From Bacillota bacterium (GTDB lineage Bacteria > Bacillota > JACPQU01): DNA of 34,925 bases. Below, piece after piece: positions 10,239-32,927 of this stretch (its first letter is position 1; the number at the start of each line of letters is the position of its first letter). Below the pieces are notes generated by a model that saw nothing but the letters and a program-made list of their open reading frames with translations, had not been told where the DNA came from and made no database searches. The stretch spans positions 1-34,925 of the forward strand of contig JACPQU010000036.1 in NCBI GenBank assembly GCA_016190305.1, read 5' to 3'. Both the position numbers and the translations under genes were made by a program.

Positions 10239-11872
10239 TGGCTCTCCCCCGCCGCTACCAGGAGCAGGGCGTTAAGAGCGGCGGCGACCAGGGGGCTGCC
10301 GCCGCGCTCCCCCCTGATGGTGATGTAGGGAAGTCCGGAGGCAGCCAGGCGATCCTTGGACTCCCTGGCCCCCACGAACCCCACCGGGATCCCGATCACC
10401 AGGGCGGGCGGCTTCGCCGTGCCTTCCTCAACCAGGTCGATAAGCTCCTCCAGGGCCGTGGGAGCATTTCCGACCAGGACGATGCCCCCGCCGATTTCCC
10501 CCGCCAGCTTCCGCACGGCCATGGCGCTCCGGGTGCGCCCGGTCCGCTCGGCTTCCCCGGCCACCGCCGGGTCAGCCACGAGGCAAAGAGGCCGGCAGCC
10601 GAAGCGATCCATGAGCCTCCCATTCAGGGCCACCCGGACCATGTTCACGTCGGTCACCACCGCGCACCCCGCCCGGAGGGCCGCCACACCTCTATCCGCG
10701 GCGTCCGGCTGGAACTCCACCGCCCGTGCCAGCCCCAAGTCTCCGCTGGTGTGCACGATCCGCTCCACCACCGCCCGCTCGGCTTCCGAGAGGGGAAGGA
10801 TCCCCAGGTGCCCGCGGATGATCTCGAAGCTGCGACGGGAGATCCCCGCGGGATCCCGGATGGGTTCGTAGGTGGCGGGGCCGCCGTCGGGAGTTTGGGG
10901 CGGGGCGGCGGAGCCTTCGGATGATCCTGACCGGACGGCGGAGCCGCCGTCGGGAGACCCGGACCCGGCGGAAAGATCCGCGGCGGACGCCCGGGACCCG
11001 GAACCATCCGGCCCGGAACCACCCAGCCGGTATTTCCGGTCATATCCTCGCGGGGTGACCATCGCCTCTCCCACCCGGAAGGTGGTGGAGTTCCCGATGA
11101 TGATCGTGGTCTGCATGTCCACCGGAATCTCCGCCAGGCCGGCGAGATCGGCCGTTTCCACCTGCTGCCCCTCGCGGTAGGCACGCCTGACCACCCCGAC
11201 CGGCGTGGCAGGGTCAAGGTGCCGGAGGAGGATCCGCCGAGCCTCCTCCAGGGGCCCTTTTCTCTTACTGCTGGCCGGGTTGTAGAGGGCGATGACCAGA
11301 TCGGCCTTCGCCGCCAGTTCCAGGCGCTTGGCGATGGTTTCCCAAGGCGTCAGGAGGTCGCTCAGGCTGATCACCGCCATGTCGTTCATCAACGGCGCTC
11401 CCAGAAGGGCTCCCGCGGCAGCCGCGGCGGTGATCCCGGGGATCACCTCAATGGGCGGCGCCGGGACATCGGCGCCATCCGCAGCCAGGATCTCGTAAAC
11501 CAGGCCGGCCATCCCGTAAATGCCGGCATCGCCGCTGGAAACGAGGGCGACGGCCTGCCCCTCACGGGCCAGGGTCAAGGCCTTCCGCGCCCTTTCAACC
11601 TCGTCGCCCATCCTCCCGGAGTGGATCTCCTTGCCTTCAATGATCCCCGCAAGAAGGCGCAAGTAGGTGGTGTACCCCACAACCGCCTCGGCGCGGCGAA
11701 GGGCCTCCGCCGCTGCCGGGGTGATCTGAGCGGGCTCCCCGGGCCCGATTCCTACTATAAGAAGGCGTCCACCAGGATGGCTCCCACTCGGAAGACCCCC
11801 GTTATTTCCATTAGAAACGTCATTCCCGTCAAGACCACTATGTTCGCGATTCCCGCCAGGATCATCCCGCAT
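10235..11872 (-). CDS. cbiH-cbiC: Fusion of cobalt-factor III / precorrin-3B C17-methyltransferase (CbiH) and cobalt-precorrin-8 methylmutase (CbiC)
   Basis: The N-terminal half has the tetrapyrrole methylase signature (LLIVGIGPGEPAQITPAA...VSSGDAGIYGMAG...VIPGITAA). A Gly/Ser linker follows at about 10868-11026. The C-terminal half is CbiC/CobH-like (SFEIIRGHLG, HTSGDL, LVGNAPTAL, VIGIPVGFVGA.ESK). I chose ATG 11872, which has a GGAGGAGGAG RBS and overlaps the cbiFG stop by 11 nt. Confidence 0.85.
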   Translation of the reverse strand: MRDDPGGNREHSGLDGNDVSNGNNGGLPSGSHPGGRLLIVGIGPGEPAQITPAAAEALRRAEAVVGYTTYLRLLAGIIEGKEIHSGRMGDEVERARKALTLAREGQAVALVSSGDAGIYGMAGLVYEILAADGADVPAPPIEVIPGITAAAAAGALLGAPLMNDMAVISLSDLLTPWETIAKRLELAAKADLVIALYNPASSKRKGPLEEARRILLRHLDPATPVGVVRRAYREGQQVETADLAGLAEIPVDMQTTIIIGNSTTFRVGEAMVTPRGYDRKYRLGGSGPDGSGSRASAADLSAGSGSPDGGSAVRSGSSEGSAAPPQTPDGGPATYEPIRDPAGISRRSFEIIRGHLGILPLSEAERAVVERIVHTSGDLGLARAVEFQPDAADRGVAALRAGCAVVTDVNMVRVALNGRLMDRFGCRPLCLVADPAVAGEAERTGRTRSAMAVRKLAGEIGGGIVLVGNAPTALEELIDLVEEGTAKPPALVIGIPVGFVGARESKDRLAASGLPYITIRGERGGSPLVAAALNALLLVAAGESQ

Positions 11873-14180
11873 TGCTCTCCTCCTCCGGTTCACCAACCCG
11901 TCCCGGGGACACCGCCGCAGCAATGGCGCCATCCCCGCGCACGTCCGCGCCGGTGCCTCCCGCCGTTCGGGCCACCGCGACGGTGACCGGGCCCAGCTTC
12001 CGCTTGGGGACGATCAACTCGGGGCGCGCTTTCCCGGTGGGGATGGGGGGGACTTGCCGCTCCGGGACCGAATAATGGCCGCTTCCGAAACCGTCCAGGT
12101 GCAGACCGGCCAGAAACGCCGCGGGTTCGCACACCCCGGCGACCCCCATGTAACGCACCGGGGGTGAGGACGGATCCGGGCTCTCCCGCCCCAGTTCGTC
12201 TTCCCAGGCCCGGTTCAAGGCCTCTCCTTCAAAGCAAAGGAGGGGAACCCCCATCCCCCGGCAGAAAGCGGTGAGCCCCGCTTCCCCTTCCTTTTCCTTC
12301 AAGGTGCCGACGGCGCCTATCGAAAGGCGGCTCAAACCGGCTCCGGCCAGGGTTTCGGCGACGGCAGTCCTGATGCTCCCCTCGCCGGTCTCCTTCCGGC
12401 ACCCGATCCCCACGGCCAGGGTCGGGGGGCGGAACACCACCAAGTGCCTGGGAAGGCCTCCGGGTAGACCGGCACGGAGGGAAAGTCCCTCATTCCCCCC
12501 ATTTCCGGTGAGTCCCCCGTCTCCCGGGATCTCCCGGTCGCTGATGATCACCGCCGCCGGGCATTCCTCACCGGCCAGGCCCTTCAATCCCGCCGGACCC
12601 ACCATGTCCGCCTGAACCGCACCGCCCGGAAGGCCGGAGAGGCGGATTATATTGGGAGGAAGCGGGATTCCTTCGGGCCAGCGGCAGCCGGCCCCCTCTT
12701 CCACCAGCGCCACCCGTTCGCCGTTCACCAGGGCGGCCGTCACTCCCGTCAGGTCGCTCCCCGGCTCCAGCTTCCACCCCAGCTTCCGCGGCCATGTATC
12801 CAGGGCGGGAAGACCGGCCAGGTCGGAAGCGGTGGTGATCACCGGCCGCGCTCCCAAGATGCCAGCCACTTTATGGGCCAGTTCGTTGGCCCCTCCCAGG
12901 TGCCCGGACAAGAGGCTGACGGCGTGGAGACCCTCGTCATCCACGGCCACAACCCCCGGGTCGCGGCGCTTGTCCGATAAAGAAGGGGCGATGAGCCTGA
13001 CCGCCGCCCCCACGGCCATGCAGAGGACGATCCGATCCGCCTGCCGGAAGAGTTCCGTCACCAAGTCCCGGCAGGGCTGCTCGTAGTAGATCACGGCGGG
13101 GTCGGGGTTCCGCCCATGGTCAACGTCAGCCCGGGCTGTCTCATCCCGGTACCGCTCGGGAAGATAAACGGCGGCAGTCGATCCCAGGCCCGTGGCGATC
13201 CGGAGCGCCAGCCCGGCCCCCTTCCGGCTGACCGCCACCACGGCCTGGCGTGAAACGACGGCGGTGCTCCCGGTCCACGTGCCGGGCCCCGGTTCCGCTC
13301 CAGCCGCCCCACCGTCTCCAGTTATCCCGCCGGCCCCGGAGGTTCCAATCGCTCCAGCGGCTCCTTCGGGCCGGGTCGCGCAGGTTCCCGTCCCGCCCTC
13401 GCCGCTCGCACCGCCGTCACCGCGCTCCGACTGCCAGTCGCCGTAAAGGTGCGATCTGGGCGCTGTTCCATCCCTTTCCTTGACGGCCTCCCCGACCAGG
13501 ATCAGGGCGTGCCTGGCGATCCCTTCGGAGCGGATCCTGGAGGCCAGTTCTCCCAGGGGGCAGCGCAGCACCTGCTCGTCCTCCCAGGTGGCCCGGTAGA
13601 CGACAGCCGCGGGGGTATCCGGCAGATAGCCGCCGGCCAGCAGCTCCTCTTGAACTGCTTCCGCCAGGGAAGCGCTGAGGAAGACGGCCATCGTCGCCCC
13701 GTGGGCCGCGAGCCCGGCCAGGGATTCCCGATCCGGAACCGGGGTACGCCCCCGGCCCCTGGTCACGATCACGGTCTGGGCCCCTCCGGGGACGGTCAAC
13801 TCGCTCCGGACGGCGGCGGCCGACGCCGAAAGGGAGGTCACCCCAGGGACGATCCGGTAGGGGATCCCCTCGGCCTCCAGGATCGCCAGTTGCTCGGCCA
13901 GCGCACCATAGAGAGAGGGATCGCCGGTATGCAGCCGCGCTACCTTCCTGCCGGCCGCCACGGCCTCCTTGATCAGGCCGGTGATCTCCTCCAGGCGCAT
14001 GTCCGAACTCCCGCGGACCTCGGCTCCTTCACGGGCATGCCCGAGGATGGCCGGGTTGATCAGGGAATCGGCCCAGATCACCAGGTCGGCCTCTCCCAAA
14101 AACCGCCTCCCCTTGATGGTGAGAAGCTCCGGATCCCCCGGGCCCGCCCCGATGAAGTGAACCGGCGGCCGGGCGGTCAC
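11862..14180 (-). CDS. cbiF-cbiG: Fusion of cobalt-precorrin-4 C11-methyltransferase (CbiF) and cobalt-precorrin-5A hydrolase (CbiG)
   Basis: The N-terminal part reads VHFIGAGPGDPELLTIKG...RLHTGDPSLYGA...IVPGVTS (CbiF). A Gly-rich linker lies at about 13248-13439. The C-terminal part has CbiG features (VVAVSRKGAGLA, VITTASD, LAVGIGCRK). The GTG start overlaps the cbiETL stop (GTGA). Confidence 0.85.
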   Translation of the reverse strand: MTARPPVHFIGAGPGDPELLTIKGRRFLGEADLVIWADSLINPAILGHAREGAEVRGSSDMRLEEITGLIKEAVAAGRKVARLHTGDPSLYGALAEQLAILEAEGIPYRIVPGVTSLSASAAAVRSELTVPGGAQTVIVTRGRGRTPVPDRESLAGLAAHGATMAVFLSASLAEAVQEELLAGGYLPDTPAAVVYRATWEDEQVLRCPLGELASRIRSEGIARHALILVGEAVKERDGTAPRSHLYGDWQSERGDGGASGEGGTGTCATRPEGAAGAIGTSGAGGITGDGGAAGAEPGPGTWTGSTAVVSRQAVVAVSRKGAGLALRIATGLGSTAAVYLPERYRDETARADVDHGRNPDPAVIYYEQPCRDLVTELFRQADRIVLCMAVGAAVRLIAPSLSDKRRDPGVVAVDDEGLHAVSLLSGHLGGANELAHKVAGILGARPVITTASDLAGLPALDTWPRKLGWKLEPGSDLTGVTAALVNGERVALVEEGAGCRWPEGIPLPPNIIRLSGLPGGAVQADMVGPAGLKGLAGEECPAAVIISDREIPGDGGLTGNGGNEGLSLRAGLPGGLPRHLVVFRPPTLAVGIGCRKETGEGSIRTAVAETLAGAGLSRLSIGAVGTLKEKEGEAGLTAFCRGMGVPLLCFEGEALNRAWEDELGRESPDPSSPPVRYMGVAGVCEPAAFLAGLHLDGFGSGHYSVPERQVPPIPTGKARPELIVPKRKLGPVTVAVARTAGGTGADVRGDGAIAAAVSPGRVGEPEEESNAG

Positions 14181-16738
14181 GACTCATGCTCCCGTTCTTC
14201 ATCTTCTCGCCGGTTTCCCAATTGACCGTGTTCCACCTGCCGGCTTTCTTCCCGCCGGCGAACCTGTGCCCGGGACGCACCCGTAACCACCAGCAGCGAG
14301 AAGTATTCGGGTTTCTTCCCCCGCAGAGCGCCGACATCCCTGGTCAGGTATTCCCATGGCGTGCCGCACCGCTCCACGTAGACCGCCCCATCGGCCAGAC
14401 CCTCGCGGTCGAGGAGATCGATCAGCGTATCCAGATGCTCCCCGAGCTTCATGATTACCACCGTCTCGAAGGCTTTCAGGGCCGCCTCGATCCTGGCCGG
14501 CCCGGCGCTCGCCGGCAGCACCGCCACCCCTTCGTCCTCCACGGCAAGCGGCAGGAGGGCCGCCGCCGAAGCAGCGGAGATGGAGGAGATCCCGGGGATC
14601 ACGCTGATCGGGGAGCCCGGGGAGAGCTGCTTGACCTCCTCGGCCAAGTAAGTCCAGGTGCTATACCAAGCGGGATCCCCTTCAGTCAAAAAGGCGCAAT
14701 GGTGGCCGCGGAGAAGCCGTTCGGCCACGCAGCGGGCCGCCTCCCGCCATGCCTCGGTCAGGGCGGCGCGGTCCCTGGTCATCGGGAAATCGAGGGGAAT
14801 CAACTCCTGCACGCCCGGGTGGAGGAGATCCTCCACCACCGACAAGGCGTAGCTCCGGTGAGCGCTCGACTTACGGGGAAAGCAGACGACCGGAACGTGG
14901 CTCAGGACCTCACGGGCCCCGACCGTCAGAAGGAACGGGTCCCCGGGCCCCACCCCGATCCCGATGAGGGACCCAGGCCCGACTGCCGGTTCTCCCTTCG
15001 CAACCTTTGCAGCATCCGAAACCTTTGTACCGTTTGCATCGTTCGCACCTATCGCACCCATTGCTTCCATCGCGTCCTGTTCTACCTCGTTCCCGGGATT
15101 GTCGATTCCGCATGTTCCGACCGGTCCCGTTCCCGTCGGCGTACCGAGGGTTCCCAGTGTTCCTGCTTCGCCTTGACCCGGGTTTCCCCTGGCGGCGACT
15201 TCGACGGTAGCGACTTCCCCGATGGCGGCTCCTTGCCCCTTTTCGGCCGTGATGATCCAGACCGGATCCAGGGCTTCGAACCGCGTCAGTCCCTGGAGGT
15301 CGCGCCCCCGGGAAACCTGCACCTGGATGACCTCCGGGGCGAAACCCGCTTCTTTGAGGGCTGCCAGGGTCTGATGCAGGGTCTCCACCGTTGCGGCGTT
15401 GACCGTCAGCCGGCCGCCGGGAGTCAAACGCGCAGCCGCTGTCCGCAGGATCTCCCGGAGACGCCCTCCCGAGCCGCCCACGAAGACGGCGTCCGGCGGC
15501 GGGGCTCCCTCGAAGGTCTCCGGCGCTTCCCCCTGCCTGATTTCCAGGTTGACGGCTCCGAAACGAGCCGCGTTGGCCCGGATGTGCTCCACCGCCTCCG
15601 GGTTCCGCTCAAAGGCGACCGCCCGGCCGCGCGGCGCGGCCAGGGCCGCTTCCACGGCCACCGACCCGGATCCGGCCCCCACGTCCCACACCACGCTGTC
15701 CTCGCGGAGACCCAGAGAGGCCAGACAGAGAATCCTCACCTCACGCTTGGTAATCATCCCCCGGCGCGGAGCGCGGAATTGAAACTCTTCATCACGGATC
15801 CCGGTGACTAGTCGGGCTGCGTTTTCGTTCGGACGGGCTGAGTTTCCGGGTCCGGCCCCGACGGGCCGGGCGGATAATTTCAACGCGGTGAGGTCGTCTT
15901 CGGCTTCGGACAACAGGCTGCCGGGAGCCGGCTTGAGGATCACGATGTTGGGATAATCGAAGCTTTCTTGGGCCATTATGCGCAAGGTCCCCTCCCAGAT
16001 CCGCTCTCTTTCTTCACTCCCGAGGCGCTCACACACGAAGGCAGGGCAGTCGGGCACCCCCCGGGAAAGGAGAAAAGAAGCCACGGCGGCCGGATTGTGC
16101 TTGTGATCGGTCAGGATGGCGAGTTTCCGGATGGCTGCGTTCCGGCCCGGCCCCTCGCCCGGTCCCCCGGTGGTTTCGCGAGTCAGTCCCGGATTCAGTC
16201 CCTGGGCCAGCCCCGCCAGTTCGTCCAGGGACCGCCCGTGGACGCTGAAGAAAGCCGCGTCTTCCCAGGTTTCCCCGATCCGCGCGAAGGCGAGCTGCAC
16301 CCAGCTCACCGCCGGAACGATCTCCACCTGTTCCCTTCCGAACTCGCGGAGCAGAAAGGAAGCGACCCCAAAGAAACCCGGATCCCCCGACGCCAGGACG
16401 ACGATCCTTCCATTCCCGGGGTCAGCCGGGCAGGTTTCAGCGTCGATTTCCGCGCGGGTTCCCATTCGGGTTTCGGCGCGGGTTTCCCGGATGGCCGCGG
16501 CCAGGCTGCCGAGGCCTGCGCGGATGGGCAGGCGGCGTCCCCCCGCATCGGGAAACATGTCCAGCAGGTACTGTCCTCCCGCCAGCAGCGAGGCCGAGAG
16601 CACCGCCTTCCGCCACCGGTCCCCCAGGGCAGACGGCCCGTCGGGGCCCACTCCAATGACCAGGATCTTTTCCGGAATCTTCTCCGGATCGCAGCTCCCT
16701 ATTTCTTCTTGACCGCCCGGCGCCTGATCAAAGCTCAA
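14177..16738 (-). CDS. cbiE-cbiT-cbiL: Triple fusion: cobalt-precorrin-7 C5-methyltransferase (CbiE), cobalt-precorrin-6B C15-methyltransferase/decarboxylase (CbiT) and cobalt-factor II C20-methyltransferase (CbiL)
   Basis: CbiE-like, about 15929-16669 (ILVIGVGPDG, VVLASGDPGFFG, IVPAVSW). CbiT-like SAM methylase, about 15239-15802 (ITKREVR, VWDVGAGSGSVAVEAA). Linker at about 14975-15238. CbiL-like, 14180-14974 (LIGIGVGPGDPFLLT, FLTEGDPAWYST, VIPGISS). GGGAGG RBS lies 7 nt before TTG 16738. Confidence 0.85.
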   Translation of the reverse strand: MSFDQAPGGQEEIGSCDPEKIPEKILVIGVGPDGPSALGDRWRKAVLSASLLAGGQYLLDMFPDAGGRRLPIRAGLGSLAAAIRETRAETRMGTRAEIDAETCPADPGNGRIVVLASGDPGFFGVASFLLREFGREQVEIVPAVSWVQLAFARIGETWEDAAFFSVHGRSLDELAGLAQGLNPGLTRETTGGPGEGPGRNAAIRKLAILTDHKHNPAAVASFLLSRGVPDCPAFVCERLGSEERERIWEGTLRIMAQESFDYPNIVILKPAPGSLLSEAEDDLTALKLSARPVGAGPGNSARPNENAARLVTGIRDEEFQFRAPRRGMITKREVRILCLASLGLREDSVVWDVGAGSGSVAVEAALAAPRGRAVAFERNPEAVEHIRANAARFGAVNLEIRQGEAPETFEGAPPPDAVFVGGSGGRLREILRTAAARLTPGGRLTVNAATVETLHQTLAALKEAGFAPEVIQVQVSRGRDLQGLTRFEALDPVWIITAEKGQGAAIGEVATVEVAARGNPGQGEAGTLGTLGTPTGTGPVGTCGIDNPGNEVEQDAMEAMGAIGANDANGTKVSDAAKVAKGEPAVGPGSLIGIGVGPGDPFLLTVGAREVLSHVPVVCFPRKSSAHRSYALSVVEDLLHPGVQELIPLDFPMTRDRAALTEAWREAARCVAERLLRGHHCAFLTEGDPAWYSTWTYLAEEVKQLSPGSPISVIPGISSISAASAAALLPLAVEDEGVAVLPASAGPARIEAALKAFETVVIMKLGEHLDTLIDLLDREGLADGAVYVERCGTPWEYLTRDVGALRGKKPEYFSLLVVTGASRAQVRRREESRQVEHGQLGNRREDEEREHES

Positions 16739-21151: not shown

Positions 21152-22543
21152 TCAGCTCCCTTGATTGGTTGTTTTCGATTCCGAGAGGCGGCGCTCCATA
21201 CTGCGGATCGCCGCCAGGGCCTTTAGCACATGGCGGCTTTCGACAAGGGGTGATCCTTCCTCCGCGGCCAGGTCACCCGCGGCCCTCACCAGCCCCCCCA
21301 GATCCCGCAAGCGCAAGGTGAGCCCGCCTTGGCTACCCGCCATCCGCCGCGCCTCCCCGATGATCTCTTCGAGCCCGCTCCGGTGAAAGGGCGGGATCCT
21401 CCCGTCTTTACCCACTTCCTGGGCCACGAAGATCGCCAGCTTGTACCTGTTGGCCGGCGAATCGGGCATAGTCTCCCGCAGCAAGACCTCGTATCCATAG
21501 CCCCTGATCCTGGACCTGAGCGCGGGATGGAGCCCGGCCACCGTTTCCTTGTTCCCGGCGGCGACCAGGAGGAACCGGCAGGGGACGGGCGCGGTCCGGA
21601 CCATGGCCCCTGCCGAGGTCTCGCTCTGCCCGGTGATGGCGAATTCCCCATCCTGGATGGCCGTGAGGAGCTGCTGCTGGGTGTGGCGTTCCAGGGTGCC
21701 GATCTCGTCGACGTAAAGAACCCCCAGGTGCGCCTTATGGATCAGGCCGGCTACCACCCGGATGTGGGGCGGGGTCCCCAGGCCTCCTGACTGGTAAGGG
21801 TCGTGGAGGACATCCCCCAGAAGCGCCCCGGCGTGGGCTCCGGATCCATCCCAGAAGGGCGCTCCTTCCCACCCTCCGTTGTCCACGATCAGGGCGGGCT
21901 GGGAGAGATCCGTGCGGTGCCCCCCTCCCGGACGCCCCTGCGCAAGGAGGAAGGCGAGCAGTCCAAAACCGGCTACGCCGCTCACGGCAAAAGAGAGGAA
22001 CATGATGGCTCCCACGGTGGGGGAGTAGGACGCGTTCCAGCGGGCGAAGGCCCACCACGGAGCCAGCGCCGCCAGGAGAAAGGCAAAGCCCAGGAAAAAC
22101 CAGCGGGCAGCTTTCCGTCGCCTCCGGATCCCTGGATCCGGGCCCCAAGGGAAGTCCGACACCGGATCGCCGCCGCCCCTGGCCTGGAACCGCCCGGTGT
22201 GGCGGCGTCCTTCCCCCGCCGGGACGACCCGAACCAGGGGCTGGAAGGGATCGTAAGGGTTCTGTTCTGCCAGAACGTCCACCAGGGGCTCCCGGGAGAG
22301 GAGATCCGAGAGGGCCTTCCCGAGCATGCTTTTGCCGGTGCCTGGCTCGCCGATCAGGAAGAGATGGCGTCGCTGCCGGGCGGCCCGCCTGAGAATCTCG
22401 ACCGCTTCCTCCTGTCCGATCACCTGCTCGACCAAGGCCGAAGGAATCCTGATGGAATCGGTCGTTTCCGGCAGGACGTACCCCGATGCCTCTTCCCCGC
22501 TATTCAGATCCGGCCCGTTCGCCGCCTTTTCCGTGTGCCCCAC
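21152..22543 (-). CDS. LonB-type AAA+ ATPase with an inserted transmembrane hairpin but no Lon protease domain
   Basis: Walker [11 protein letters not shown], Walker B VLYVDEIG, plus [63 protein letters not shown] and [17 protein letters not shown], all as in archaeal-type LonB. Two hydrophobic helices lie at about 21941-22105. The ORF ends right after the AAA lid helices, and cobT starts 4 nt later. Confidence 0.75.
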
Positions 22544-22615: not shown

Positions 22616-23386
22616 TCACGCCTGTTCTTCCTTGCCGCCCTTCCATTCCCGGAGCCCGAAGCCCGGGTTAAGGAGGTAGTAACGGTTCGAGGGGTGGAAG
22701 ATGCCATCCGGCCCCGCCGAAGCCAGGGTCTCCCGCGTGAGAAGAGTCCTTCGATCCCACCAACCCTTTACCAAGGCTGAGGCCGCCGGCAACTCCTCCG
22801 GCCGGCCGGCCAGGCGCCCAATGGAGGAAAGGATCACGTAGAGCGAGAGGCCGACCGCCAGGGAGCGGATGGTCGAAGTTGTTGCAGCCCGCCCTGGCAA
22901 GATCTGATCCAGCTCTTTCCCTTGGGACTCCACCCGTTCCCCCACCAACAGCGCCTCGCGGCGAACCCCGTCAAGGTGCCGGTACCAGGATTCTAATACG
23001 CGGCGCTCCCGGTCCCGGAACGCGAGGGGGATCTCCCTGCCCCCGACCTTGGCCCTGAGTTCCGAAGCGGCCAGGTCCCGCAGTTGGCGGGTACAGCCCC
23101 CCAGCCCTCTCACCAGGGACAGGGCCCCCTTGACCGAGCCCCGATGGGGATCGCCGGGGGTGAACCAGATCGCCAGGCGGCGGAAGTAGAGGCTGGTCAT
23201 ATTAGCTCCCAGGCTTCGCTCCAGGCGGGAAAGGAAGCGAATTGCATCCTTTGTTGCTTGATCATCGCCGGCCGCCACAGTCCTTCCGAAGGGCGCGCTC
23301 CTTCGGAGCACAAGCCGCTCCCAGGTAACCCTGAAAGCCCGGGTACCCTTGTCCAAACCAGCCAGCCAGCGCTCCAGTTCCTCCAT
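22616..23386 (-). CDS. Hypothetical protein (256 aa), no family recognised
   Basis: The ORF is open from 23557, but that upstream part overlaps cbtB. ATG 23386 lies 19 nt after the cbtB stop. The region looks coding, with G/C-rich third positions. It has one weakly hydrophobic segment (IRSLAVGLSLYVILSSIG) and no motif I can name. Confidence 0.5.
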   Translation of the reverse strand: MEELERWLAGLDKGTRAFRVTWERLVLRRSAPFGRTVAAGDDQATKDAIRFLSRLERSLGANMTSLYFRRLAIWFTPGDPHRGSVKGALSLVRGLGGCTRQLRDLAASELRAKVGGREIPLAFRDRERRVLESWYRHLDGVRREALLVGERVESQGKELDQILPGRAATTSTIRSLAVGLSLYVILSSIGRLAGRPEELPAASALVKGWWDRRTLLTRETLASAGPDGIFHPSNRYYLLNPGFGLREWKGGKEEQA

Positions 23387-23405: not shown

Positions 23406-23612
23406 TCAGTGGCAGCCGATGAATCCGGTGGCGTGCCTGAGTTCGTGGAAAAAGTCATGCGTGGCCGGGTACGCGGAAAAGAAGACGGCGTACAGGGCGG
23501 CGGCGAGGAAGACGGTGATGGCCACAACCTGGAACCTGGCCGAGAAAACGAAACCAAAGATGTTGACCTCCCTGAGCCTGGTCCTGGTGGCCTCCCTGAC
23601 AGCGTGAAACAC
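23406..23612 (-). CDS. cbtB: CbtB-like small membrane protein (putative cobalt transporter subunit)
   Basis: 68 aa with a basic N-terminus and one TM helix (IFGFVFSARFQVVAITVFLAAALYAVFF). The C-terminal THDFFHELRHATGFIGCH matches the H-D-x-x-H-(D/E)-x-R-H-x-x-G-F-x-C-H end of the CbtB family as I recall it. GGGGGGAG RBS lies 7 nt before the GTG. Confidence 0.75.
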   Translation of the reverse strand: MFHAVREATRTRLREVNIFGFVFSARFQVVAITVFLAAALYAVFFSAYPATHDFFHELRHATGFIGCH

Positions 23613-23796
23613 TGAACTGCTCCCCCCTATTTCGGTAGACTCTATTTCACCAGGCTATAATTTGGGCCGATCCGGTCAGCCGGCCCACCCATAAAAGCAA
23701 TATGTCGGTCAGGCATCGGATTACACATACCGGTTACGCCCACGCATACCGGGCACTATTTCTCCTACCAGGCCCGCTTCACGCATATGGGGACTG

Positions 23797-25041
23797 TCAC
23801 GCATATCGAGCAATGAATCGGCGCCGCTGGATCAGGGCCGCTGCAACGAACCCAAGAAGGAACGTCCCCATCAGCAAGGCCAAGTCCTTCAGGCGCCTCG
23901 CCAAGGTGGGCTGCACCGGGGCGATTCCCAGCTCCACCTGGCCCTCAAAGGGTTCAAAGGAGGTCGGATCCTCAGGTTCAGCGGGCCGAACCGAGATCCC
24001 CGCCGTGAACTCCTCTCCCTCGGGAAAGTGATAAAGAAACGTGGTTTGGCCCTGAGGGGCCAGGAGGCTGAGCTTGAACATTTTCTCCACCTGGCCATGT
24101 TCTTCCATAACCATCTCGACCTCGAGGAGGGCGCCGGAAAGCGGTTGCCCGTCGTCCCCGAAGACCTCCAGGTTCACCATTGCCGGGGCATCCATCCTGG
24201 GATCCGCGGGGGAAGTTTGCAGCCGGATCCGGCCCCCGGCCGTCTCGTGAAGTCCCAGTCCGGCTGGGTGCGGCTCGCCGTGGGCATGGACCACACCGGA
24301 GACCCCGCCGGCCGCCGACAGGAGTAAACCCTGGAGCAGGAGCAGGGTAAGGGCACCCCGTACGGCTCCGGGATTTGGGCCCGCAGAACTTCCCCTTTTC
24401 CAGCCCAGGAATTCCGGGCCATAGAGCCAGCCGACCACCAAACCGAAAAGCAGCAAACCGCCGAGAAGGAGGCCGCTCCACAGGAACTTCTGGGGATCTT
24501 CCCTGACGGCCACCTTGAATTCGTCCTGGCCAATGGGGGCAACCCCGGCTTGGCCTGGTTGACCCTCATCCGGTCCGGAACCATATGCCCTCACGTACAA
24601 GCCGTAGGTTCCACGGATGGGGAAGCGGAAATCCTCCAGCACCCACCTGCCCGCGGACACGGCGGTTGTGACCGACAGGATCCTGGAGCCCTCCAGGTAC
24701 GGAAGATCGGTCCCGATGATCCGCCGGCGGCTCCCGAGATGCCTGATCTCGACCTCCAGGGAAGCGTCCGGAGCCGGCGCACCGGTCCCCGCCTCCATAA
24801 CTTCGAAGACGAGGTCCCTGGTCTCCCCCGCGATTATGGGCAGGGTGGAATCATCGCCCGAACTGAACTTGACAACGTACTCTCCAGGGGCCGCAGCCAC
24901 CTCGGCCGAGACCGGCCTCGCAGCGTGGGATCCGGGGAGGCTGGTCGGAACGGCTTGCAGGAACAGGGCCAGGAAGACACCGGCGGCGATCAAAACCAGC
25001 TTGGACTGGGCGAAGCGAAACCAGGAGCAAACTCGAAACAC
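23797..25041 (-). CDS. Unknown 4-TM membrane protein with two extracytoplasmic beta-rich domains and an HAHGEPH-x7-H motif
   Basis: It is the first ORF after the riboswitch terminator. AAGGGGGAG RBS lies 7 nt before GTG 25041; the track start at 25089 sits in the terminator U-tract. Hydrophobic helices begin at aa 31, 203, 244 and 403 (track numbering). Internal repeat: LVFEVMEAGTGAPAPDASLEVEIRH versus VNLEVFGDDGQPLSGALLEVEMVMEEH. The His cluster is at 24247-24288. Confidence 0.6.
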   Translation of the reverse strand: MFRVCSWFRFAQSKLVLIAAGVFLALFLQAVPTSLPGSHAARPVSAEVAAAPGEYVVKFSSGDDSTLPIIAGETRDLVFEVMEAGTGAPAPDASLEVEIRHLGSRRRIIGTDLPYLEGSRILSVTTAVSAGRWVLEDFRFPIRGTYGLYVRAYGSGPDEGQPGQAGVAPIGQDEFKVAVREDPQKFLWSGLLLGGLLLFGLVVGWLYGPEFLGWKRGSSAGPNPGAVRGALTLLLLQGLLLSAAGGVSGVVHAHGEPHPAGLGLHETAGGRIRLQTSPADPRMDAPAMVNLEVFGDDGQPLSGALLEVEMVMEEHGQVEKMFKLSLLAPQGQTTFLYHFPEGEEFTAGISVRPAEPEDPTSFEPFEGQVELGIAPVQPTLARRLKDLALLMGTFLLGFVAAALIQRRRFIARYA

Positions 25042-25086
25042 GGTCAAACTCCCCCTTTTTTCCCGGTACCAAGAAGTCCACCGCGT

Positions 25087-25121
25087 CACGAAGAAAGCCC
25101 CCGACCATTTCGGTCGGGGGC
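25087..25121 (-). terminator. Intrinsic terminator forming the expression platform of the cobalamin riboswitch
   Basis: The minus strand reads GCCCCCGACC-gaaat-GGTCGGGGGC, a perfect 10-bp stem (25097-25121), followed by TTTCTTCGT. Confidence 0.7.
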
Positions 25122-25159
25122 CTGGTGTACGCGTAAGGAGTACCGGACCCTTCCTTCGA

Positions 25160-25352
25160 AGGTCGCGCTGGTACGTATGGGCGGGTAGGTCTCCTGGCTC
25201 CCGGATCCTCGCCTGCCGCCACGCCTTCCCGTTTCCGATCCGGAAACAGTGGCTCTATGGTCTTACGGCAGACAGGCTCCCCGGTTACAGTGGCGGGACC
25301 GCGCCGGACTCTCACCGGCTTCCCTTATTCACCCTCGAGGGGCACCCGACCA
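25160..25352 (-). promoter_or_regulatory. Cobalamin (B12) riboswitch aptamer
   Basis: The minus strand reads GAATAAGGGAAGCCGGTGAGAGTCCGGCGCGGTCCCGCCACTGTAACCGG (core at 25287-25324). A B12-box-like GAGCCAGGAGACCTACCC lies at 25183-25200. Both match the conserved cobalamin riboswitch elements. Confidence 0.88.
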
Positions 25353-25537
25353 ACTAGTTTTTTCAGTGAAGCTTGTACTTTTGGGTCTATCAGGCTCCTT
25401 TGTGCAATCTTTCGTCCCAAACCCAATTCTACCTCCGGATCCAAAAAGGATCAAGGGATCGGGTAGTTACATAAAATCCCATCCGGCTTCCTGCGAGTCT
25501 TGCGAATCAAGGAGACAAGATTCGAGTTGAAAAATCG

Positions 25538-26023
25538 TCAAATTTTATCTATAGCCCGCCAGGCCTTGTAACCAAAAGCAGCGGCCGCCAGATCAAGCAT
25601 GCCGATAAAAGGCGTTCCCCTGATGATCACCAGAACCAAGAGGCCGATGGTCGCTGCAGCGAATGTACAGCCGATGACGACATTGCCTGCGTTGCCCTTG
25701 CTGCCGGATAGCAGCGTTTTATAGGCTCCGAAATGGAGTAAAGCAATCATCCCGCCGCTAAGTATGAGGCCCAAAATATCGCCCATCGTCAGGGCCAAAC
25801 CAAACAGAGCGGCCAGGGCGATTTGAAAGTGCAGCACTTGTTTGGCTGCAGTTTGCATATTCTCTGCTGGTTTTGATGCGGGAGATGCCGAAAGATTGAT
25901 TTGGGGATAAGGCCCCCCTAACTGGGACTGAGATGCCGACCCGTTCGTAACTCTCGTTCCGCAGGAAGAGCAGAAAGAATCGCCTTCCTCCACCTGGTTA
26001 CCGCATTTTCCGCAGTAAGCCAA
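25538..26023 (-). CDS. Zinc-ribbon domain membrane protein
   Basis: N-terminal CGKCGNQVEEGDSFCSSCG (CxxC-x11-CxxC), a Ser/Gln/Pro linker, then 3-4 hydrophobic helices. GGAGG lies 8 nt before TTG 26023. The track start GTG 26032 overlaps the RBS itself. Confidence 0.6.
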   Translation of the reverse strand: MAYCGKCGNQVEEGDSFCSSCGTRVTNGSASQSQLGGPYPQINLSASPASKPAENMQTAAKQVLHFQIALAALFGLALTMGDILGLILSGGMIALLHFGAYKTLLSGSKGNAGNVVIGCTFAAATIGLLVLVIIRGTPFIGMLDLAAAAFGYKAWRAIDKI

Positions 26024-26201
26024 ACCAATCACCTCCGTATATTTTCGGCAGTCGGTCTAGACATCCAGGGCAGGGCTTGACGTTTTCCCGCAATTTCCGC
26101 AATGGCGACACACTTAAAGATACGTTTTTTTCAAAAGGATCCCTTGCCGGATGGGTGTAAGTTCCAAAGATGATGACAAATTTCAAGGGGGGTCAACGAA
26201 C

Positions 26202-28208: not shown

Positions 28209-28754
28209 CCGGAGCGGGTTGCTCCCAGAATGGTTAGTCTTGTCCCGAGTTCACACACCATTCACACACCAAACACCTGTTTGGATTTGGATGGCAGGTT
28301 ATGTACTTGTACAGGTGGTAAAAGATCCGCTGCTCTCGCGAGACCCCTCTTAGTCCTTGCTGCGTCTGGGTCGTGGCTCATGGATAATATCCCAAGTTGG
28401 TTGAGTTTGGCCTAATCTTGGCAGGTTGCACGATTAGGGACAAGGAGCGCATTGCAGTGCCGGAAATGGATAGGACATTGGAAAGCATTTTTAGACTTCA
28501 CCACCCAATCTTGGAGACTGAATTGGGAGGGGAGTCCGGGGTGGGAGAAGAACTCTGCGGCATAACGGGTCGATCATCAGCCTTTGAGCCGATCCGGCAG
28601 GCCATATCGTCCGGGGCCTGAAGTTCCGTCACACCGGCTGGGTATTGAATCGCCCCCGGCCTTTATGGGGGAGCCAAAGGGCAACGGGTCACCTAGTCTT
28701 CGTCTTAGGTATAGCGTAGTACGACATCTACATGACTGTATGCGGAGGTCAGTC

Positions 28755-31700
28755 ATGGTAACCCAAAAAGGATCATCTGACGATCAAACAAACTGGAAAT
28801 CACCGCAGAATTCTAAGGAACTGGAGAACGAGTTTGAAGAGGCTGCTCTCTTTCCGGTGGTCGGCATCGGCGCTTCCGCGGGCGGCCTGGGTGCTGTCAA
28901 GAAACTACTGGAGCACTTACCCTCCGACACCGGGCTGGCGTTCCTGTTCGTTCAACACCTCGACCCACAACAGCCCAGCTATCTGGCCAGCATCCTAGCC
29001 AAGGTCACGCCAATGCCGGTCATCGAAGCCTCCACCGGTCTGGCGGTGCGCCCTAATCACCTCTATGTGATCCCGCCCGGCAGCAACTTGACTCTCGCAC
29101 AGGGCATCCTGTACGTGACACCGCGCGGCGTTGGACCCGGCCCATACTATACAATCGATCACCTGTTCCAAACTCTGGCTATAGATCAATCGGCGTTGGC
29201 GATTGGGGTTGTGCTCTCCGGTGGGGGTTTTGATGGCACTGTTGGGCTACGTGCGATCAAGGAGGCAGGGGGGATCACCTTTGCGCAGGACGAGATGTCC
29301 GCCGAGCACCCCGACATGCCGCGCAACGCCATCGATAACGGTTACGTGGATTACGTCCTGGCACCCGAGGCGATCGCGCAGCGCCTGGCGGAGATCAGAA
29401 CCCACCTTCACCTGATGTCCGAATCCCGAGTCGAGGTCTCCGAGGCGGACGACCAGGTATTCAGGGCGATCCTCAGGATGGTGCGTTCGTTCGCCGGCGT
29501 CGATTTCAGTCTTTATCGGGATACCACCATCCGACGGAGGATCATGCGCCGTATGGCTATCCGTTCGAGACGCTCGCTATCTGACTATTACCAGTTGCTC
29601 AAGGCGGAGCGGACGGAAGTCGAGGCGCTGTACCACGACTCGCTGATCAACGTGACCTCCTTCTTTCGCGAGCCCGATATGGGCGATGCTCTCAAGACTA
29701 TTGTCTTCCCCAGACTGGTAGAAGGTAAATCCTCCTCGATGCCCTTGCGCATCTGGGTTCCGGGGTGTTCCACCGGCCAAGAGCCCTACTCACTGGCCAT
29801 AGCTCTTTTGGAGTTTTACGATGATAGGCACGGACGGCCACCAGTTCTGATCTTCGCCACCGACGTCAATGAGAGCGTACTGCAGAAGGCCCGTGCCGGC
29901 GTCTATCCCGAGAGCATCGAGGCTGAGGTGTCTCCGGGTCGGTTGCGCCGATTTTTTCATAAAGAGGATCACTTATATCGAATCGACCAGTCGGTCCGTG
30001 ACCTATGTATTTTCGGGCGGCAGAACATAACGGCTGATCCGCCCTTCTCCCATCTCGATCTGATCAGTTGTCGCAATTTGTTTATTTACCTCGCGACTCC
30101 GGTGCAGAAGCGGGTCGTACCCTTGTTTCATTACGCCCTGAATGTCCCGGGCTTTCTTGTGCTCGGGTCAGCCGAGTCGGTAGGTGAGCACACAGATTTG
30201 TTTGAGGTGATAGATCGAAAGTACAAGATCTATGCCAAGAAGACTACAGGGGCCTCGCGAATTTTGGACCTCGCTGTCGGCGATAAGCAATCCGGGTTAG
30301 CCATAGCCACCCGGTGGCCAGACTCGACCGGGTCCAGCCCACCGGGTTTCCAAAGAGAGGCCGACCGCATTCTGCTGCGCCGCTTCACCCCACCGGGCGT
30401 GCTTGTCAACGAAAATCTTGACATTGTGCGGTTTCATGGACAAACCAGCCCATACCTCGGGCCTCCACCCGGTGAGCCGACGATGAACCTGCTCAAGATG
30501 GTTCGCACAGACTTGTTCACGGCGCTTCGCAGAGCCCTTGCCGAGTCCAAGGAACATAAGCGGCCCGCCCGCCACGACGGCATACGCCTGCGTGCCAACG
30601 GAGGGAAGCGCGTAATCAGCGTGGAGACCATACCCATCACATCCGCAGGAGCAGAGGTGGCGGACCGGTGCTTTCTGGTCCTGTTCCATGAAGTCGAGTC
30701 GAGCCACCCTGGGTCTCTTCCCCCCGACCAGGACGCAAGAGCCCAAGCCGCAGCTGCCGTGGAAGAAAGCGTCAAGAAAGAGGGCGAGCATCCAGCCTTC
30801 GAGGAAGGGTCCGAGGTGGCCGTCCTACGGCAAGAGCTTGCGACTGCTAAAGAGTATTTGCAGGCGATGATGGAACAGCAGGACGCGGTCAATGAGGAGT
30901 TGCGTTCGGCTAACGAGGAGATCCTCTCGAGCAACGAAGAACTCCAGAGCACCAACGAGGAGCTGGAAACTTCCAAAGAAGAACTGCAGTCTACCAACGA
31001 AGAGCTAATAACGGTGAATGAACGACTCCAGTATATTAACGGGGAGTTGGACAAGACCAACAATGATTTGATCAACCTCTTGGCGAGCACCCAGATCCCG
31101 GTCATCATGATCGGGCGCGACCTGCGTATCCGACGGTTCACGGAATCAGCCAAGGAAACCTTTAACCTGGTGTCCAAGGATGTCGGCCGGTCTATCCGCT
31201 ACTTAAATGAAGCGGTGCCAATGACCGATTTCGAGGAGTTGGTGAGCAAGGTTGTCGCCGAGGTGCAGCCTTTGGAGCAAGAGGTCCGGGCTAGAAACGA
31301 TCATTGGTATGTCCTGCGCATCTACCCCTATTTGACCACGGATCACAAGATCGACGGGGCTGTCGTCGTACTCCTGGATATCGACGCCCTAAAGCGAACC
31401 GAGAATGAACTACGAGCTGCTGAGGAGCGCCTGCGCTCTGTTATGGACAAGGTTGTGAACGGGATCATCACCACGGACAAAGGCGGGCACATTCAGTCGT
31501 TCAACCCTGCTGCGGAAAGACTCTTCGGTTACAGTCGCTCCGAAGCCATCGGTCAGAACGCCAAGGTTCTTCTGTACGAATTCGACCAGAGTGAGGATGA
31601 GGGTGTCCGCAGCAATAACGGAGAAAACTGGCAGACGACGATCCTTGGTGGCTGGCATGAGGTCACCGGCAAGCGCAAAGACGGGTCCACCTTTCCAATG

Positions 31701-32927
31701 GAGTTGGCCGTGAGCGAATTCCACGTCGGGTCGCAGCTGTTCACGTGGATTGTGCGGGACATCACCGAGCGCAAGCGTGCCGCGCAGGAAGGACGTCGGC
31801 ACCTGGATGAATTGGCTGAGGCTGACAGCCGAAAGGACGACTTCCTGGCGACCTTGGCCCACGAGCTGCGGAACCCCCTCACCTCCATCTACACTAGCGT
31901 GCAACTCTTGCGACGGCTCAAGGCCCCTGAACCTAAATCCGAACAGGTCTACGAGGTGCTGCAGCGGCAGGTGGCCCACCTGGCCCGGTTGGTCGAGGAT
32001 CTTTTGGATGTATCGCGCATCACACGGGGCACCATCGAGCTACGCAAGGAGCGGGTCCTGCTGGGTAACGTTATTGAGAGCGCCATCGAATTGAGTAAAT
32101 CGCCCATCGAGAGTTCAGGGCACCAGTTGAGTGTTTCCCTTCCTCCGCAACCAATTATTCTTGAGGCAGACCCTGTCCGCCTGGCGCAGGTGTTCGCCAA
32201 TCTCCTTAATAACGCCAGTAAGTTCACGGACGAGGGAGGGCAAATCTCGCTGACCGCGCGGCAGGAAACCGAAAGTGTGGTGGTATCTGTTTGCGATACC
32301 GGTGTCGGTATCCCGGAAGACCTGCTGCCCGAAATCTTCGGTATGTTCAAGCAGGGGGAAAGTCCGGTAGCTCGGACTCAAAGTGGGTTAGGAATCGGTC
32401 TGACCCTGGTACGCAGTCTCGTCGAACTCCACGGCGGTCACGTTGAAGCCCATAGCGAGGGACCTGGAAAAGGGAGCGAGTTCGTTGTCCGCCTGCCATT
32501 GGTGGAAGGAAGAGCCCGCCAGAAAGCATCGTCCAAGAATCGGCGAATCACGGTTGCTTCCAGGCACTGTGTCCTGCTCATCGACGACAACCGGGACCTC
32601 GCCAATACCTTCGGTATGCTTCTCAAGGAAACCGGGATAGAAGTCCGAGTTGTCTACGACGGTCCCACCGCACTGGAGATGCTCGAAACCTTCAAACCCA
32701 GCGTGGTATTGTTGGACATTGGTATGTCGGGCATGGATGGTTACGAAGTAGCCCGACGGATTCGAAAGCGTCCGGGATTTCAGAACGTGCCGCTCATCGC
32801 TCTAACCGGTTGGGGCACTGAGGAGGACGTGCGTCGCTCTCAGGCAGCGGGATTCAATCACCACCTGATCAAACCCGTCCTCATTGAGAACTTACTGGCT
32901 CTGCTGGATTCGTTGAGCAAGAACTAA
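28755..32927 (+). CDS. CheB methylesterase - CheR methyltransferase - PAS - coiled coil - PAS - PAS - HisKA/HATPase_c - receiver hybrid sensor kinase (1390 aa)
   Basis: GGAGG lies 6 nt before ATG 28755. CheB-like, about 28854-29403 (VVGIGASAGGL, VLSGGGFDG). CheR-like, about 29451-30204 (TSFFRE, IWVPGCSTGQEPYSLA, ISCRNLFIY). HisKA box LAHELRNPL. HATPase N/G boxes (NLLNNASKFT, DTGVGI, GLGIGL). Receiver domain (LLIDDN...LLDIGMSGMDG...LTGW...KP). Confidence 0.9.
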   Translation: MVTQKGSSDDQTNWKSPQNSKELENEFEEAALFPVVGIGASAGGLGAVKKLLEHLPSDTGLAFLFVQHLDPQQPSYLASILAKVTPMPVIEASTGLAVRPNHLYVIPPGSNLTLAQGILYVTPRGVGPGPYYTIDHLFQTLAIDQSALAIGVVLSGGGFDGTVGLRAIKEAGGITFAQDEMSAEHPDMPRNAIDNGYVDYVLAPEAIAQRLAEIRTHLHLMSESRVEVSEADDQVFRAILRMVRSFAGVDFSLYRDTTIRRRIMRRMAIRSRRSLSDYYQLLKAERTEVEALYHDSLINVTSFFREPDMGDALKTIVFPRLVEGKSSSMPLRIWVPGCSTGQEPYSLAIALLEFYDDRHGRPPVLIFATDVNESVLQKARAGVYPESIEAEVSPGRLRRFFHKEDHLYRIDQSVRDLCIFGRQNITADPPFSHLDLISCRNLFIYLATPVQKRVVPLFHYALNVPGFLVLGSAESVGEHTDLFEVIDRKYKIYAKKTTGASRILDLAVGDKQSGLAIATRWPDSTGSSPPGFQREADRILLRRFTPPGVLVNENLDIVRFHGQTSPYLGPPPGEPTMNLLKMVRTDLFTALRRALAESKEHKRPARHDGIRLRANGGKRVISVETIPITSAGAEVADRCFLVLFHEVESSHPGSLPPDQDARAQAAAAVEESVKKEGEHPAFEEGSEVAVLRQELATAKEYLQAMMEQQDAVNEELRSANEEILSSNEELQSTNEELETSKEELQSTNEELITVNERLQYINGELDKTNNDLINLLASTQIPVIMIGRDLRIRRFTESAKETFNLVSKDVGRSIRYLNEAVPMTDFEELVSKVVAEVQPLEQEVRARNDHWYVLRIYPYLTTDHKIDGAVVVLLDIDALKRTENELRAAEERLRSVMDKVVNGIITTDKGGHIQSFNPAAERLFGYSRSEAIGQNAKVLLYEFDQSEDEGVRSNNGENWQTTILGGWHEVTGKRKDGSTFPMELAVSEFHVGSQLFTWIVRDITERKRAAQEGRRHLDELAEADSRKDDFLATLAHELRNPLTSIYTSVQLLRRLKAPEPKSEQVYEVLQRQVAHLARLVEDLLDVSRITRGTIELRKERVLLGNVIESAIELSKSPIESSGHQLSVSLPPQPIILEADPVRLAQVFANLLNNASKFTDEGGQISLTARQETESVVVSVCDTGVGIPEDLLPEIFGMFKQGESPVARTQSGLGIGLTLVRSLVELHGGHVEAHSEGPGKGSEFVVRLPLVEGRARQKASSKNRRITVASRHCVLLIDDNRDLANTFGMLLKETGIEVRVVYDGPTALEMLETFKPSVVLLDIGMSGMDGYEVARRIRKRPGFQNVPLIALTGWGTEEDVRRSQAAGFNHHLIKPVLIENLLALLDSLSKN
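30912..31079 (+). repeat. Eight consecutive 21-nt (heptad) units within the kinase gene, each beginning with an Asn/Lys codon (NEEIxSS/NEELQST...)
   Basis: Read directly: AACGAGGAGATCCTCTCGAGC / AACGAAGAACTCCAGAGCACC / AACGAGGAGCTGGAAACTTCC / AAAGAAGAACTGCAGTCTACC / AACGAAGAGCTAATAACGGTG / AATGAACGACTCCAGTATATT / AACGGGGAGTTGGACAAGACC / AACAATGATTTGATCAACCTC. Confidence 0.85.

Follow-up and report, generated by a model that had tools for sequence, protein, structure and literature searches.

Genomic Locus

We examined a 34,925-nucleotide stretch of DNA from a Bacillota bacterium (GenBank assembly GCA_016190305.1, contig JACPQU010000036.1), hereafter the window, and in it a gene on the minus strand whose 414-residue product we designate X, together with its family. 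X is probably part of an undescribed cobalt supply route for B12 synthesis, because it stands beside CbtB, in the place of CbtA, and the family often follows a B12 riboswitch. Coordinates are window positions, and all features of the gene and its operon lie on the minus strand. In the order of transcription, with transmembrane helices abbreviated TM and immunoglobulin-like domains Ig-like, the locus contains:

25426–25454, minus strand: sigma-70-like promoter match (TTGATC-17-TAGAAT) 5′ of the riboswitch, a consensus match only (1 found versus 0.4 expected)
25167–25364, minus strand: cobalamin riboswitch aptamer (RF00174; 108.6 bits versus a gathering score of 31.5; full model, 1–189)
25095–25123, minus strand: 12-bp GC-rich hairpin followed by UUUCUU (−30.9 kcal/mol, z −2.8)
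23797–25041, minus strand: target gene, 414-residue member of the CbtB-partner family, in the order signal peptide/TM1, Ig-like domain 1, TM2, loop, TM3, His linker, YtkA-like domain 2, TM4
23406–23612, minus strand: CbtB, 68 residues, one TM, C-terminal motif HDFFHELRHATGFIGCH (Pfam match, motif comparison)
22616–23386, minus strand: 256-residue open reading frame (ORF) between the CbtB and AAA+ genes, its start presumed at ATG 23386
21152–22543, minus strand: membrane-anchored LonB-type AAA+ ATPase, 463 residues, lacking the Lon protease domain (Pfam/NCBIfam)
834–21147, minus strand: rest of the operon, encoding CobT, a small CbiX/CfbA-type chelatase, HemA, CbiD, CbiE/T-CbiL, CbiF-CbiG and CbiH-CbiC
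834–21147, minus strand (continued): CobU, CobQ, CbiB, CbiA, CobS, a GHMP kinase, an aminotransferase and a histidine phosphatase

The ORF listing extends the target gene to 23797–25089 (minus strand). We adopted GTG 25041 as the start because AAGGGGGAG lies just 5′ of it, the 414-residue gene call in a public protein collection (P0001) agrees, and the alternative start at 25089 falls within the U-tract of the hairpin. The target is the first gene 3′ of the riboswitch, with the hairpin and U-tract situated between aptamer and gene. The hairpin, which a simple terminator scan did not flag, is the probable terminator-type expression platform of the riboswitch.

The operon encodes a complete early-cobalt-insertion (anaerobic-type) cobalamin pathway, including a CbiX-type chelatase. 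Neither CbiMNQO, NiCoT, HupE nor CbtA was found in the operon, and the window holds no CbtA-like ORF; the sole candidates for cobalt supply in the operon are the first genes after the riboswitch.

The X Family

No Pfam or NCBIfam model matched X significantly (YtkA, E 0.26; DUF7055, E 0.06). In a word-indexed protein search, the single sequence found only itself and the family profile found 11 proteins. Exhaustive phmmer against 1.84 billion cluster representatives returned 75 proteins at E ≤ 1e-3, with 25–30% identity; the 74 representatives other than X (P0002–P0084) matched at E 1e-12 to 1e-3, and most are 350–420 residues long and align end to end. The family profile scores 290 bits on the window protein. 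A genome scan with a narrower alignment (A2) detected at least 219 relatives in contigs drawn from one genome per species, mostly cyanobacteria. Family members are called ‘hypothetical protein’ wherever they are named, and our literature search found no paper describing them. Several genomes carry two copies of X (e.g., L016/L020 and L024/L050; L numbers denote individual loci). The membership of X in a large conserved family and the inclusion of the LonB-type AAA+ protein in the module go beyond a preliminary description of the gene, made from the window sequence.

Architecture and Internal Duplication

The preliminary description had read X as a TM, a β-rich domain, two TMs, a second β-rich domain and a final TM. 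Kyte–Doolittle hydropathy locates hydrophobic segments at residues ~13–33, 184–207, 226–250 and 384–406. AlphaFold2, supplied with an alignment of 36 full-length members (A1), returned a confident model with a mean predicted local distance difference test score (pLDDT) of 83.4 and a predicted template modeling score (pTM) of 0.81; from the single sequence, the prediction was poor (pLDDT 52.5). The model contains helices at 2–30, 183–211, 224–246 and 380–413, a seven-stranded β domain at 55–180 and an eight-stranded one at 262–372, with pLDDT above 90 over most of 270–350. The strings that had been quoted are also present (HAHGEPHPAGLGLHE, residues 252–266; EMVMEEH, 309–315; and the C-terminal QRRRFIARYA), so the coordinates and anatomy given earlier were correct. 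The segments of X are:

24943–25005, minus strand: TM1/signal anchor, residues 13–33 (hydropathy; model helix 2–30)
24493–24942, minus strand: ectodomain 1, residues 34–183, seven-stranded β-sandwich (window motifs DLPYLEG, PIRGTY and EDP; family motifs (T)D(F)PxVEG, PIRGxY and ENP)
24421–24492, minus strand: TM2, residues 184–207, glycine-zipper-like G200, G204 and G208
24367–24420, minus strand: short basic loop, predicted to be cytoplasmic, residues 208–225 (family net charge +1.5)
24292–24366, minus strand: TM3, residues 226–250 (hydropathy, model)
24247–24288, minus strand: His-rich linker HAHGEPHPAGLGLH, residues 252–265 (pLDDT ~58)
23893–24258, minus strand: ectodomain 2, residues 262–383, eight-stranded β-sandwich, weakly YtkA-like (family motifs xEDx with E314 and FFDGAPH with E341; the window protein has F345 for H)
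23800–23892, minus strand: TM4, residues 384–406, with G397/G401, and the basic tail RRRFIARYA (hydropathy, conservation, charge)

A putative signal peptidase I site (SHA/ARP) follows TM1. Low model confidence in the His linker (~247–261 in the model) suggests that it is flexible. The fold class of X is clear from the model, without a specific relative, and a sequence search of the Protein Data Bank (PDB) with X gave no match.

The repeat that had been noticed between the ectodomains is significant by profile–profile comparison. With hhalign, ectodomain 1 aligned to ectodomain 2 with a probability of 97.5% (E 5.1e-12), and the two halves, each including the following TM, with 98.3% (E 2.6e-14); the alignment pairs LVFEVMEAGTGAPAPDASLEVEI with VNLEVFGDDGQPLSGALLEVEM, matching the repeat as first described. 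Pairwise BLASTP of the halves was not significant (E 0.78). The profile comparison indicates that the two halves are homologous and derive from an ancient duplication. Half-size proteins matching the N half only or the C half only were also recovered by phmmer. In L094 (223–1374), a 181-residue N-half gene abuts a 201-residue C-half gene; a riboswitch lies downstream of that module, at 4283–4474. In L095 (4197–5588; isolate assembly GCA_014641195.1), an N-half gene, read in two frames owing to a frameshift or sequencing error, precedes a C-half gene behind a 103-bit cobalamin riboswitch. A single in-frame stop separates the halves in L043 (5893–7041), from a Nostocaceae metagenome-assembled genome, which may mark a pseudogene, an error in the sequencing or the beginning of a split.

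Conservation and charge were computed over 58 non-redundant members. A single conserved architecture and set of motifs marks both the 36- and the 58-member sets. Ectodomain 1 has (T)DFPxVEG(T)xLL, FPIRGxY and ENPxKxRN. The other family motifs are LxxxLxxxGxxxGxxxG in TM2, xEDx and (Q)FFDGAPH in ectodomain 2, and PP and GxxxG around TM4, along with a variable His-rich stretch after TM3. Conservation reaches 83% at D112, 95% at E117 and 97% at R143, G144, Y146 and E181 in ectodomain 1, and 95% (Asp or Glu) at E314 and 100% at D/E341 in ectodomain 2, where position 345 is His in 86% and Tyr in 12% of members. H254, at the exit of TM3, is conserved in 76%. The linker contains 9.3% His versus 2.15% overall, a 4.3-fold enrichment, with two or more His in 41 of 58 members. 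The conserved features of the TMs are small-residue zippers (G200/G204/G208 and G397/G401). The window protein, the most divergent member, keeps E117, P141, R143, G144, Y146, E181, G200, G204, H254, E314, E341 (Asp in most members), G342 and P378, and it deviates at F113L, N188W, H345F and P379T. Two observations in the preliminary description are thereby narrowed. A His-rich linker does recur in the family, but H254 is the only conserved residue of the window's His cluster. The Met/His-rich EMVMEEH, likened there to metal-binding Ig-like domains, is particular to the window sequence, as its Met residues are not conserved and E314 alone is.

Across the same members, the N-terminus (net charge +2.0), the TM2–TM3 loop (+1.5) and the C-terminal tail (+2.5) are positive, whereas ectodomain 1 (−4.4), the His linker (−2.1) and ectodomain 2 (−4.7) are negative. 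Since this pattern obeys the positive-inside rule, both β domains and the His linker are predicted to face outward, as had been proposed. CbtB has a basic N-terminus, which would place its C-terminal tail on the same outer face.

Pairing with CbtB

CbtB is encoded 185 nt downstream of X. The window CbtB scores 25.4 bits against the Pfam CbtB model (cut-off 27; E 1.6e-5) and has H52, H56, R59, H60, C67 and H68 in common with seven annotated canonical CbtB proteins; the score and the complete set of invariant C-terminal residues bear out the earlier naming of this gene. In the spacer (23613–23804, minus strand), ATGCGTG occurs three times within 64 nt. The number of copies is not significant window-wide (4 versus 2.6 expected), and the predicted structure of the spacer is ordinary (z 0.32).

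We collected 85 related loci, five from metagenomes and 80 from one-genome-per-species contigs. The pairing of X with CbtB is obligate: a CbtB homologue adjoins X on the same strand in 84 of the 85, and the exception starts at a contig edge. All 84 keep the CbtB tail H-x3-H-x2-R-H-x6-C-H (HxxxHxxRH...CH).

CbtA and CbtB (PF09490/PF09489; TIGR02458/TIGR02459) constitute a predicted cobalt transporter (Rodionov 2003; Zhang 2009, PMC2667541), and knock-down of cbtB relieves cobalt toxicity in Methylococcus (PMC13108547). Canonical CbtA has ~240 residues and five TMs, with a His-rich loop after TM1. For comparison, canonical CbtB–CbtA pairs were taken from rhizobial and other plasmids, where they were found with a CbtB-like query; tblastn of an X-type CbtB against plasmids gave no match. 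In one canonical locus (L086), the pair lies beside nitrile hydratase genes and a gene for an accessory protein. We take this nitrile hydratase to be of the cobalt type.

The same genomic position, the same partner and a His-rich extracytoplasmic stretch following a TM would fit X being a highly divergent CbtA. Profile comparison speaks against this: hhalign of the X family profile with a profile of seven canonical CbtA proteins gave a probability of 0.7% (E 0.078), the window protein matched neither PF09490 nor TIGR02458 at E ≤ 1, and no Pfam CbtA match occurred among the 36 members. The four TMs and two β domains of X also contrast with five TMs and no β domain in CbtA, and none of the 85 loci contains a CbtA-like ORF. 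We therefore reject this scarcely credible assignment and regard X as an alternative partner of CbtB, in line with the preliminary description, which had placed X in the CbtA position without calling it CbtA.

Common to the two systems are CbtB itself with its invariant C-terminal His/Cys motif, an equally tight gene pair, association with cobalamin riboswitches, cob genes and CobW, and, in the large subunit, an extracytoplasmic His-rich region that follows a TM helix. They differ in that the X large subunit is non-homologous, has four TMs instead of five and ~370–420 residues instead of ~240, contains two Ig-like ectodomains arising from duplication, and lacks conserved polar residues in its TMs. 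The X module additionally has a LonB-type AAA+ partner in several lineages. What is new is thus a CbtB-type system with a non-homologous and architecturally different large subunit.

Association with Cobalamin Biosynthesis

Of 38 loci scanned, 18, from several phyla, have a cobalamin riboswitch at Rfam gathering level directly 5′ of the CbtB/X pair (L001–L006, L010, L014, L015, L023, L029, L037, L040, L044, L056, L064, L066 and L078), a fraction biased upward because the third batch of loci was picked by nhmmer hits. A first-round nhmmer model built from confirmed aptamers only gave hits in 23 of the 85 loci. Iterated nhmmer drifted into a conserved leader, yielding hits in L021, L025, L028 and L073 that Rfam did not confirm, so only Rfam and first-round nhmmer hits were counted. 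As genomes contain few cobalamin riboswitches, the association with X is very strong. L055 carries a second cobalamin riboswitch at 4423–4565 on the minus strand, opposite to CbtB–X and ~1 kb upstream of the pair; it presumably controls a divergent gene.

The Entotheonella locus L006 follows the same logic as the window, with a riboswitch, CbtB, X, AAA+, CbiX, three tetrapyrrole methylases and CbiC in succession. In cyanobacteria, the pair is often followed by DUF1636 (23 loci) and at times by a CobW GTPase. A survey of Ni/Co transporters from 2009 has no entry for cyanobacteria under ‘other predicted Co transporter’ (PMC2667541).

The ligand outside the cell might in principle be a corrinoid, with X serving B12 salvage at the cell surface in place of Co2+ capture. 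Cobalamin riboswitches also control B12 uptake genes, and β-sandwich surface proteins can bind large ligands. We consider this very unlikely. The operons of the window and of L006 provide for de novo synthesis, with a cobalt chelatase, and need the free ion; ion ligands are typically of the kind seen in the His/Asp/Glu-rich linkers and the His/Cys tail; and no BtuFCD genes are found nearby. CbtB also occurs beside nitrile hydratase genes outside cobalamin clusters, which counts against corrinoids if that enzyme is of the assumed cobalt type, since CbtB would there serve a non-corrin cobalt enzyme.

The LonB-Type AAA+ Partner

A gene for a LonB-type AAA+ protein follows X/CbtB in the window and in L001–L007, L009, L094 and L095, but not in cyanobacteria or Binatia; in non-cyanobacterial lineages including that of the window, it is part of the module. 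The window protein shares 52–57% identity with archaeal (DPANN) LonB over 93% of its length. It resembles the archaeal membrane-bound LonB protease (TIGR00764) in having a TM insertion, here of two helices, and a LonB AAA-LID domain, and it differs in its bacterial host, its cob-operon context and the absence of Lon_C, also missing from most module partners. The L094 protein retains Lon_C and is accompanied by a separate gene for a 249-residue HEAT-like protein, whereas the AAA+ proteins of L007 and L009 carry a fused N-terminal HEAT_2 extension. The 256-residue window ORF (22616–23386) in the slot corresponding to the L094 HEAT-like gene has no Pfam match and no similarity to that protein. 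A search for AAA+ homologues was swamped by archaeal LonB proteases and was uninformative on the distribution of the module. Energizing, hand-over to the chelatase and controlled turnover are possible roles for the AAA+ protein.

X and CbtB could instead form a sensor or substrate adaptor that informs the AAA+ protein of cobalt status in the membrane or the extracytoplasmic space, acting in regulation (e.g., controlled turnover) and not in transport. The conserved position of the AAA+ gene right after X/CbtB, the Lon_C protease domain of L094, the conserved basic cytoplasmic tail of X and the lack of polar TM residues are all compatible with such a role. Most members, in cyanobacteria and Binatia, nevertheless have no AAA+ neighbor, and the X–CbtB core must therefore work alone. 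Together with the missing protease domain in the window and most partners, and with a window operon that offers no other importer to regulate, this makes a sensor quite unlikely.

An equally speculative proposal, which we hold to be improbable, is that X, CbtB and the AAA+ protein (with the intervening ORF) make up a metal importer in which Co2+ would pass from the two tethered Ig-like domains and the His linker to a glycine-zipper helix bundle, with an AAA+ ring driving or gating its translocation or its release into the cytoplasm, in the direction of the CbiX chelatase. If true, AAA+-driven import would be an energy-coupling principle unknown for any metal uptake system.

Proposed Function and Metal Specificity

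Our best reading is that X serves as the large, metal-capturing subunit in a module for CbtB-dependent acquisition of cobalt, turned on by cobalamin scarcity. We assign a probability of roughly 0.6 to X being the large subunit of such a module. That X binds metal, and cobalt in particular, is inferred from its context of riboswitch, CbtB and cob operon; the route of translocation and the part played by the AAA+ protein are likewise proposals. X would sit in the cytoplasmic membrane with both Ig-like β-sandwiches and the flexible His/Asp/Glu-rich linker outside. These outer parts would collect Co2+ through the linker and the conserved D112, E117, E181, H254, E314, D/E341 and H345, and the ion would pass to the invariant HxxxHxxRH...CH tail of CbtB on the same membrane face. 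Entry might proceed through a probably oligomeric bundle, in which the glycine-zipper-like TM2–TM4 join the helix of CbtB, or through a separate permease. In the window lineage, the co-transcribed, membrane-anchored AAA+ protein probably acts on the cytoplasmic side, in energizing, hand-over or turnover.

Several observations count against cobalt acquisition by X. Among the 58 members, 10 (~17%) have no His in the linker, and H254 is absent from 24%. Of the conserved acidic and His positions, the window protein lacks only the family H345, its Phe at this position being unique in the set; it has His338 where most members have Gln, possibly a cross-strand swap of one ligand for the other. No conserved charged or His residue falls inside a TM helix, which makes X alone unlike an ion pathway. 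A whole-model Foldseek search against the PDB returned just generic tandem β-sandwich proteins (arrestin, VPS26 and complement MG domains; TM-score ~0.19). The linkers of some members are His/Met-rich. Lastly, a Nostocales subgroup (36 loci) has neither riboswitch nor DUF1636, and its CbtB–X pair stands back to back with genes for FTR1 iron permease, multicopper oxidase and ferritin-like proteins. These neighbors, the missing riboswitch and the His/Met linkers indicate that metal specificity may differ between subfamilies and need not be cobalt throughout. The FTR1 cluster, which also encodes an HHH_3 protein, lies 1–5.5 kb upstream of the match in L011, L031, L062 and ~30 other Nostocales loci.

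The same features favor a role for X in copper or iron chaperoning, as does the domain kinship of the family. YtkA-like (PF13115) Pfam matches occur in 14 of the 36 members, all in ectodomain 2. P0010, at 30.4 bits, is the sole member above the cut-off of 25.9; P0007 reaches 25.4 bits over model positions 8–85 of 85, and the window protein stays below at 12.6 bits. Ectodomain 1 matches generic Ig-like models (Big_1, Filamin and CarboxypepD_reg). The likeness to YtkA, FixH and CopC drawn in the preliminary description therefore holds in part for YtkA, whereas FixH (PF05751) matched two of the 36 members weakly (best E 0.045) and CopC none. This signal supports the family working like a tethered extracytoplasmic metal-handling domain, and it implies neither YtkA membership of the window protein nor copper as the metal. 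A chaperone of this kind would also suit the His/Met-rich linkers of some cyanobacterial members and the FTR1, multicopper oxidase and ferritin neighbors in Nostocales, whose subgroup 6 lacks a riboswitch. Cobalt is nonetheless indicated by the window riboswitch, cob operon and CbtB alike; L040, L044 and L078 have cobalamin riboswitches despite their His/Met linkers, the FTR1 cluster is encoded on the other strand, and the window contains no CopC, Sco or oxidase genes. We thus judge copper or iron chaperoning unlikely.

YtkA domains traffic metals outside the cytoplasm, as parts of the copper importer YcnJ (CopC-CopD-YtkA) in Bacillus and of CtaK, a lipoprotein required for CuA assembly (PMC12362106, PMC13344008). 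X resembles YcnJ and CtaK of Bacillus subtilis in tethering or fusing extracytoplasmic β-sandwich metal domains to membrane helices, with a YtkA-like ectodomain 2 in the family, and in the proposed capture outside followed by hand-over to a membrane component. It differs in having no CopC or CopD domain, in its association with a B12 riboswitch and CbtB, and in its metal, presumably cobalt.

A more general parallel is offered by CbiN and NikK/NikL of the CbiMNQO/NikMNQO energy-coupling factor (ECF) transporters, small membrane-anchored proteins whose extracytoplasmic part assists Co/Ni capture. X has no sequence relation to them, is much larger and internally duplicated, and has no CbiM, CbiQ or CbiO in the window.

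Of the steps in B12 production, the entry of cobalt is understood least, and CbtAB is itself only a predicted transporter. A second, non-homologous large subunit paired with CbtB in at least 219 species-level genomes, including many Nostoc, Anabaena and other cyanobacteria, suggests that CbtB is the constant core and the large subunit is interchangeable. X is a family for annotation pipelines to model, and it might be of use in engineering the cobalt supply of B12 producers. Tractable carriers for experiments are available in Nostocales and, for the split form, in a cultured type strain, and the module raises the question of why a LonB-type AAA+ machine is tied to metal supply.

Additional Features of the Window

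Three genes of the cob operon are fusions (10235–16738, minus strand), encoding CbiE/CbiT-CbiL (853 residues), CbiF-CbiG (772 residues) and CbiH-CbiC (565 residues). G+C content falls from 0.62–0.71 over the cob operon to 0.50–0.58 right of the riboswitch, with a sharp boundary at the promoter end of the operon (~25000). Just 5′ of the riboswitch promoter, and with no evident link to the operon, lies a gene for a 164-residue zinc-ribbon protein with C-terminal membrane helices (25538–26032, minus strand). Farther on, 28584–32927 (plus strand) encodes a 1447-residue hybrid of CheB methylesterase, CheR methyltransferase, PAS domains, histidine kinase and receiver domain.

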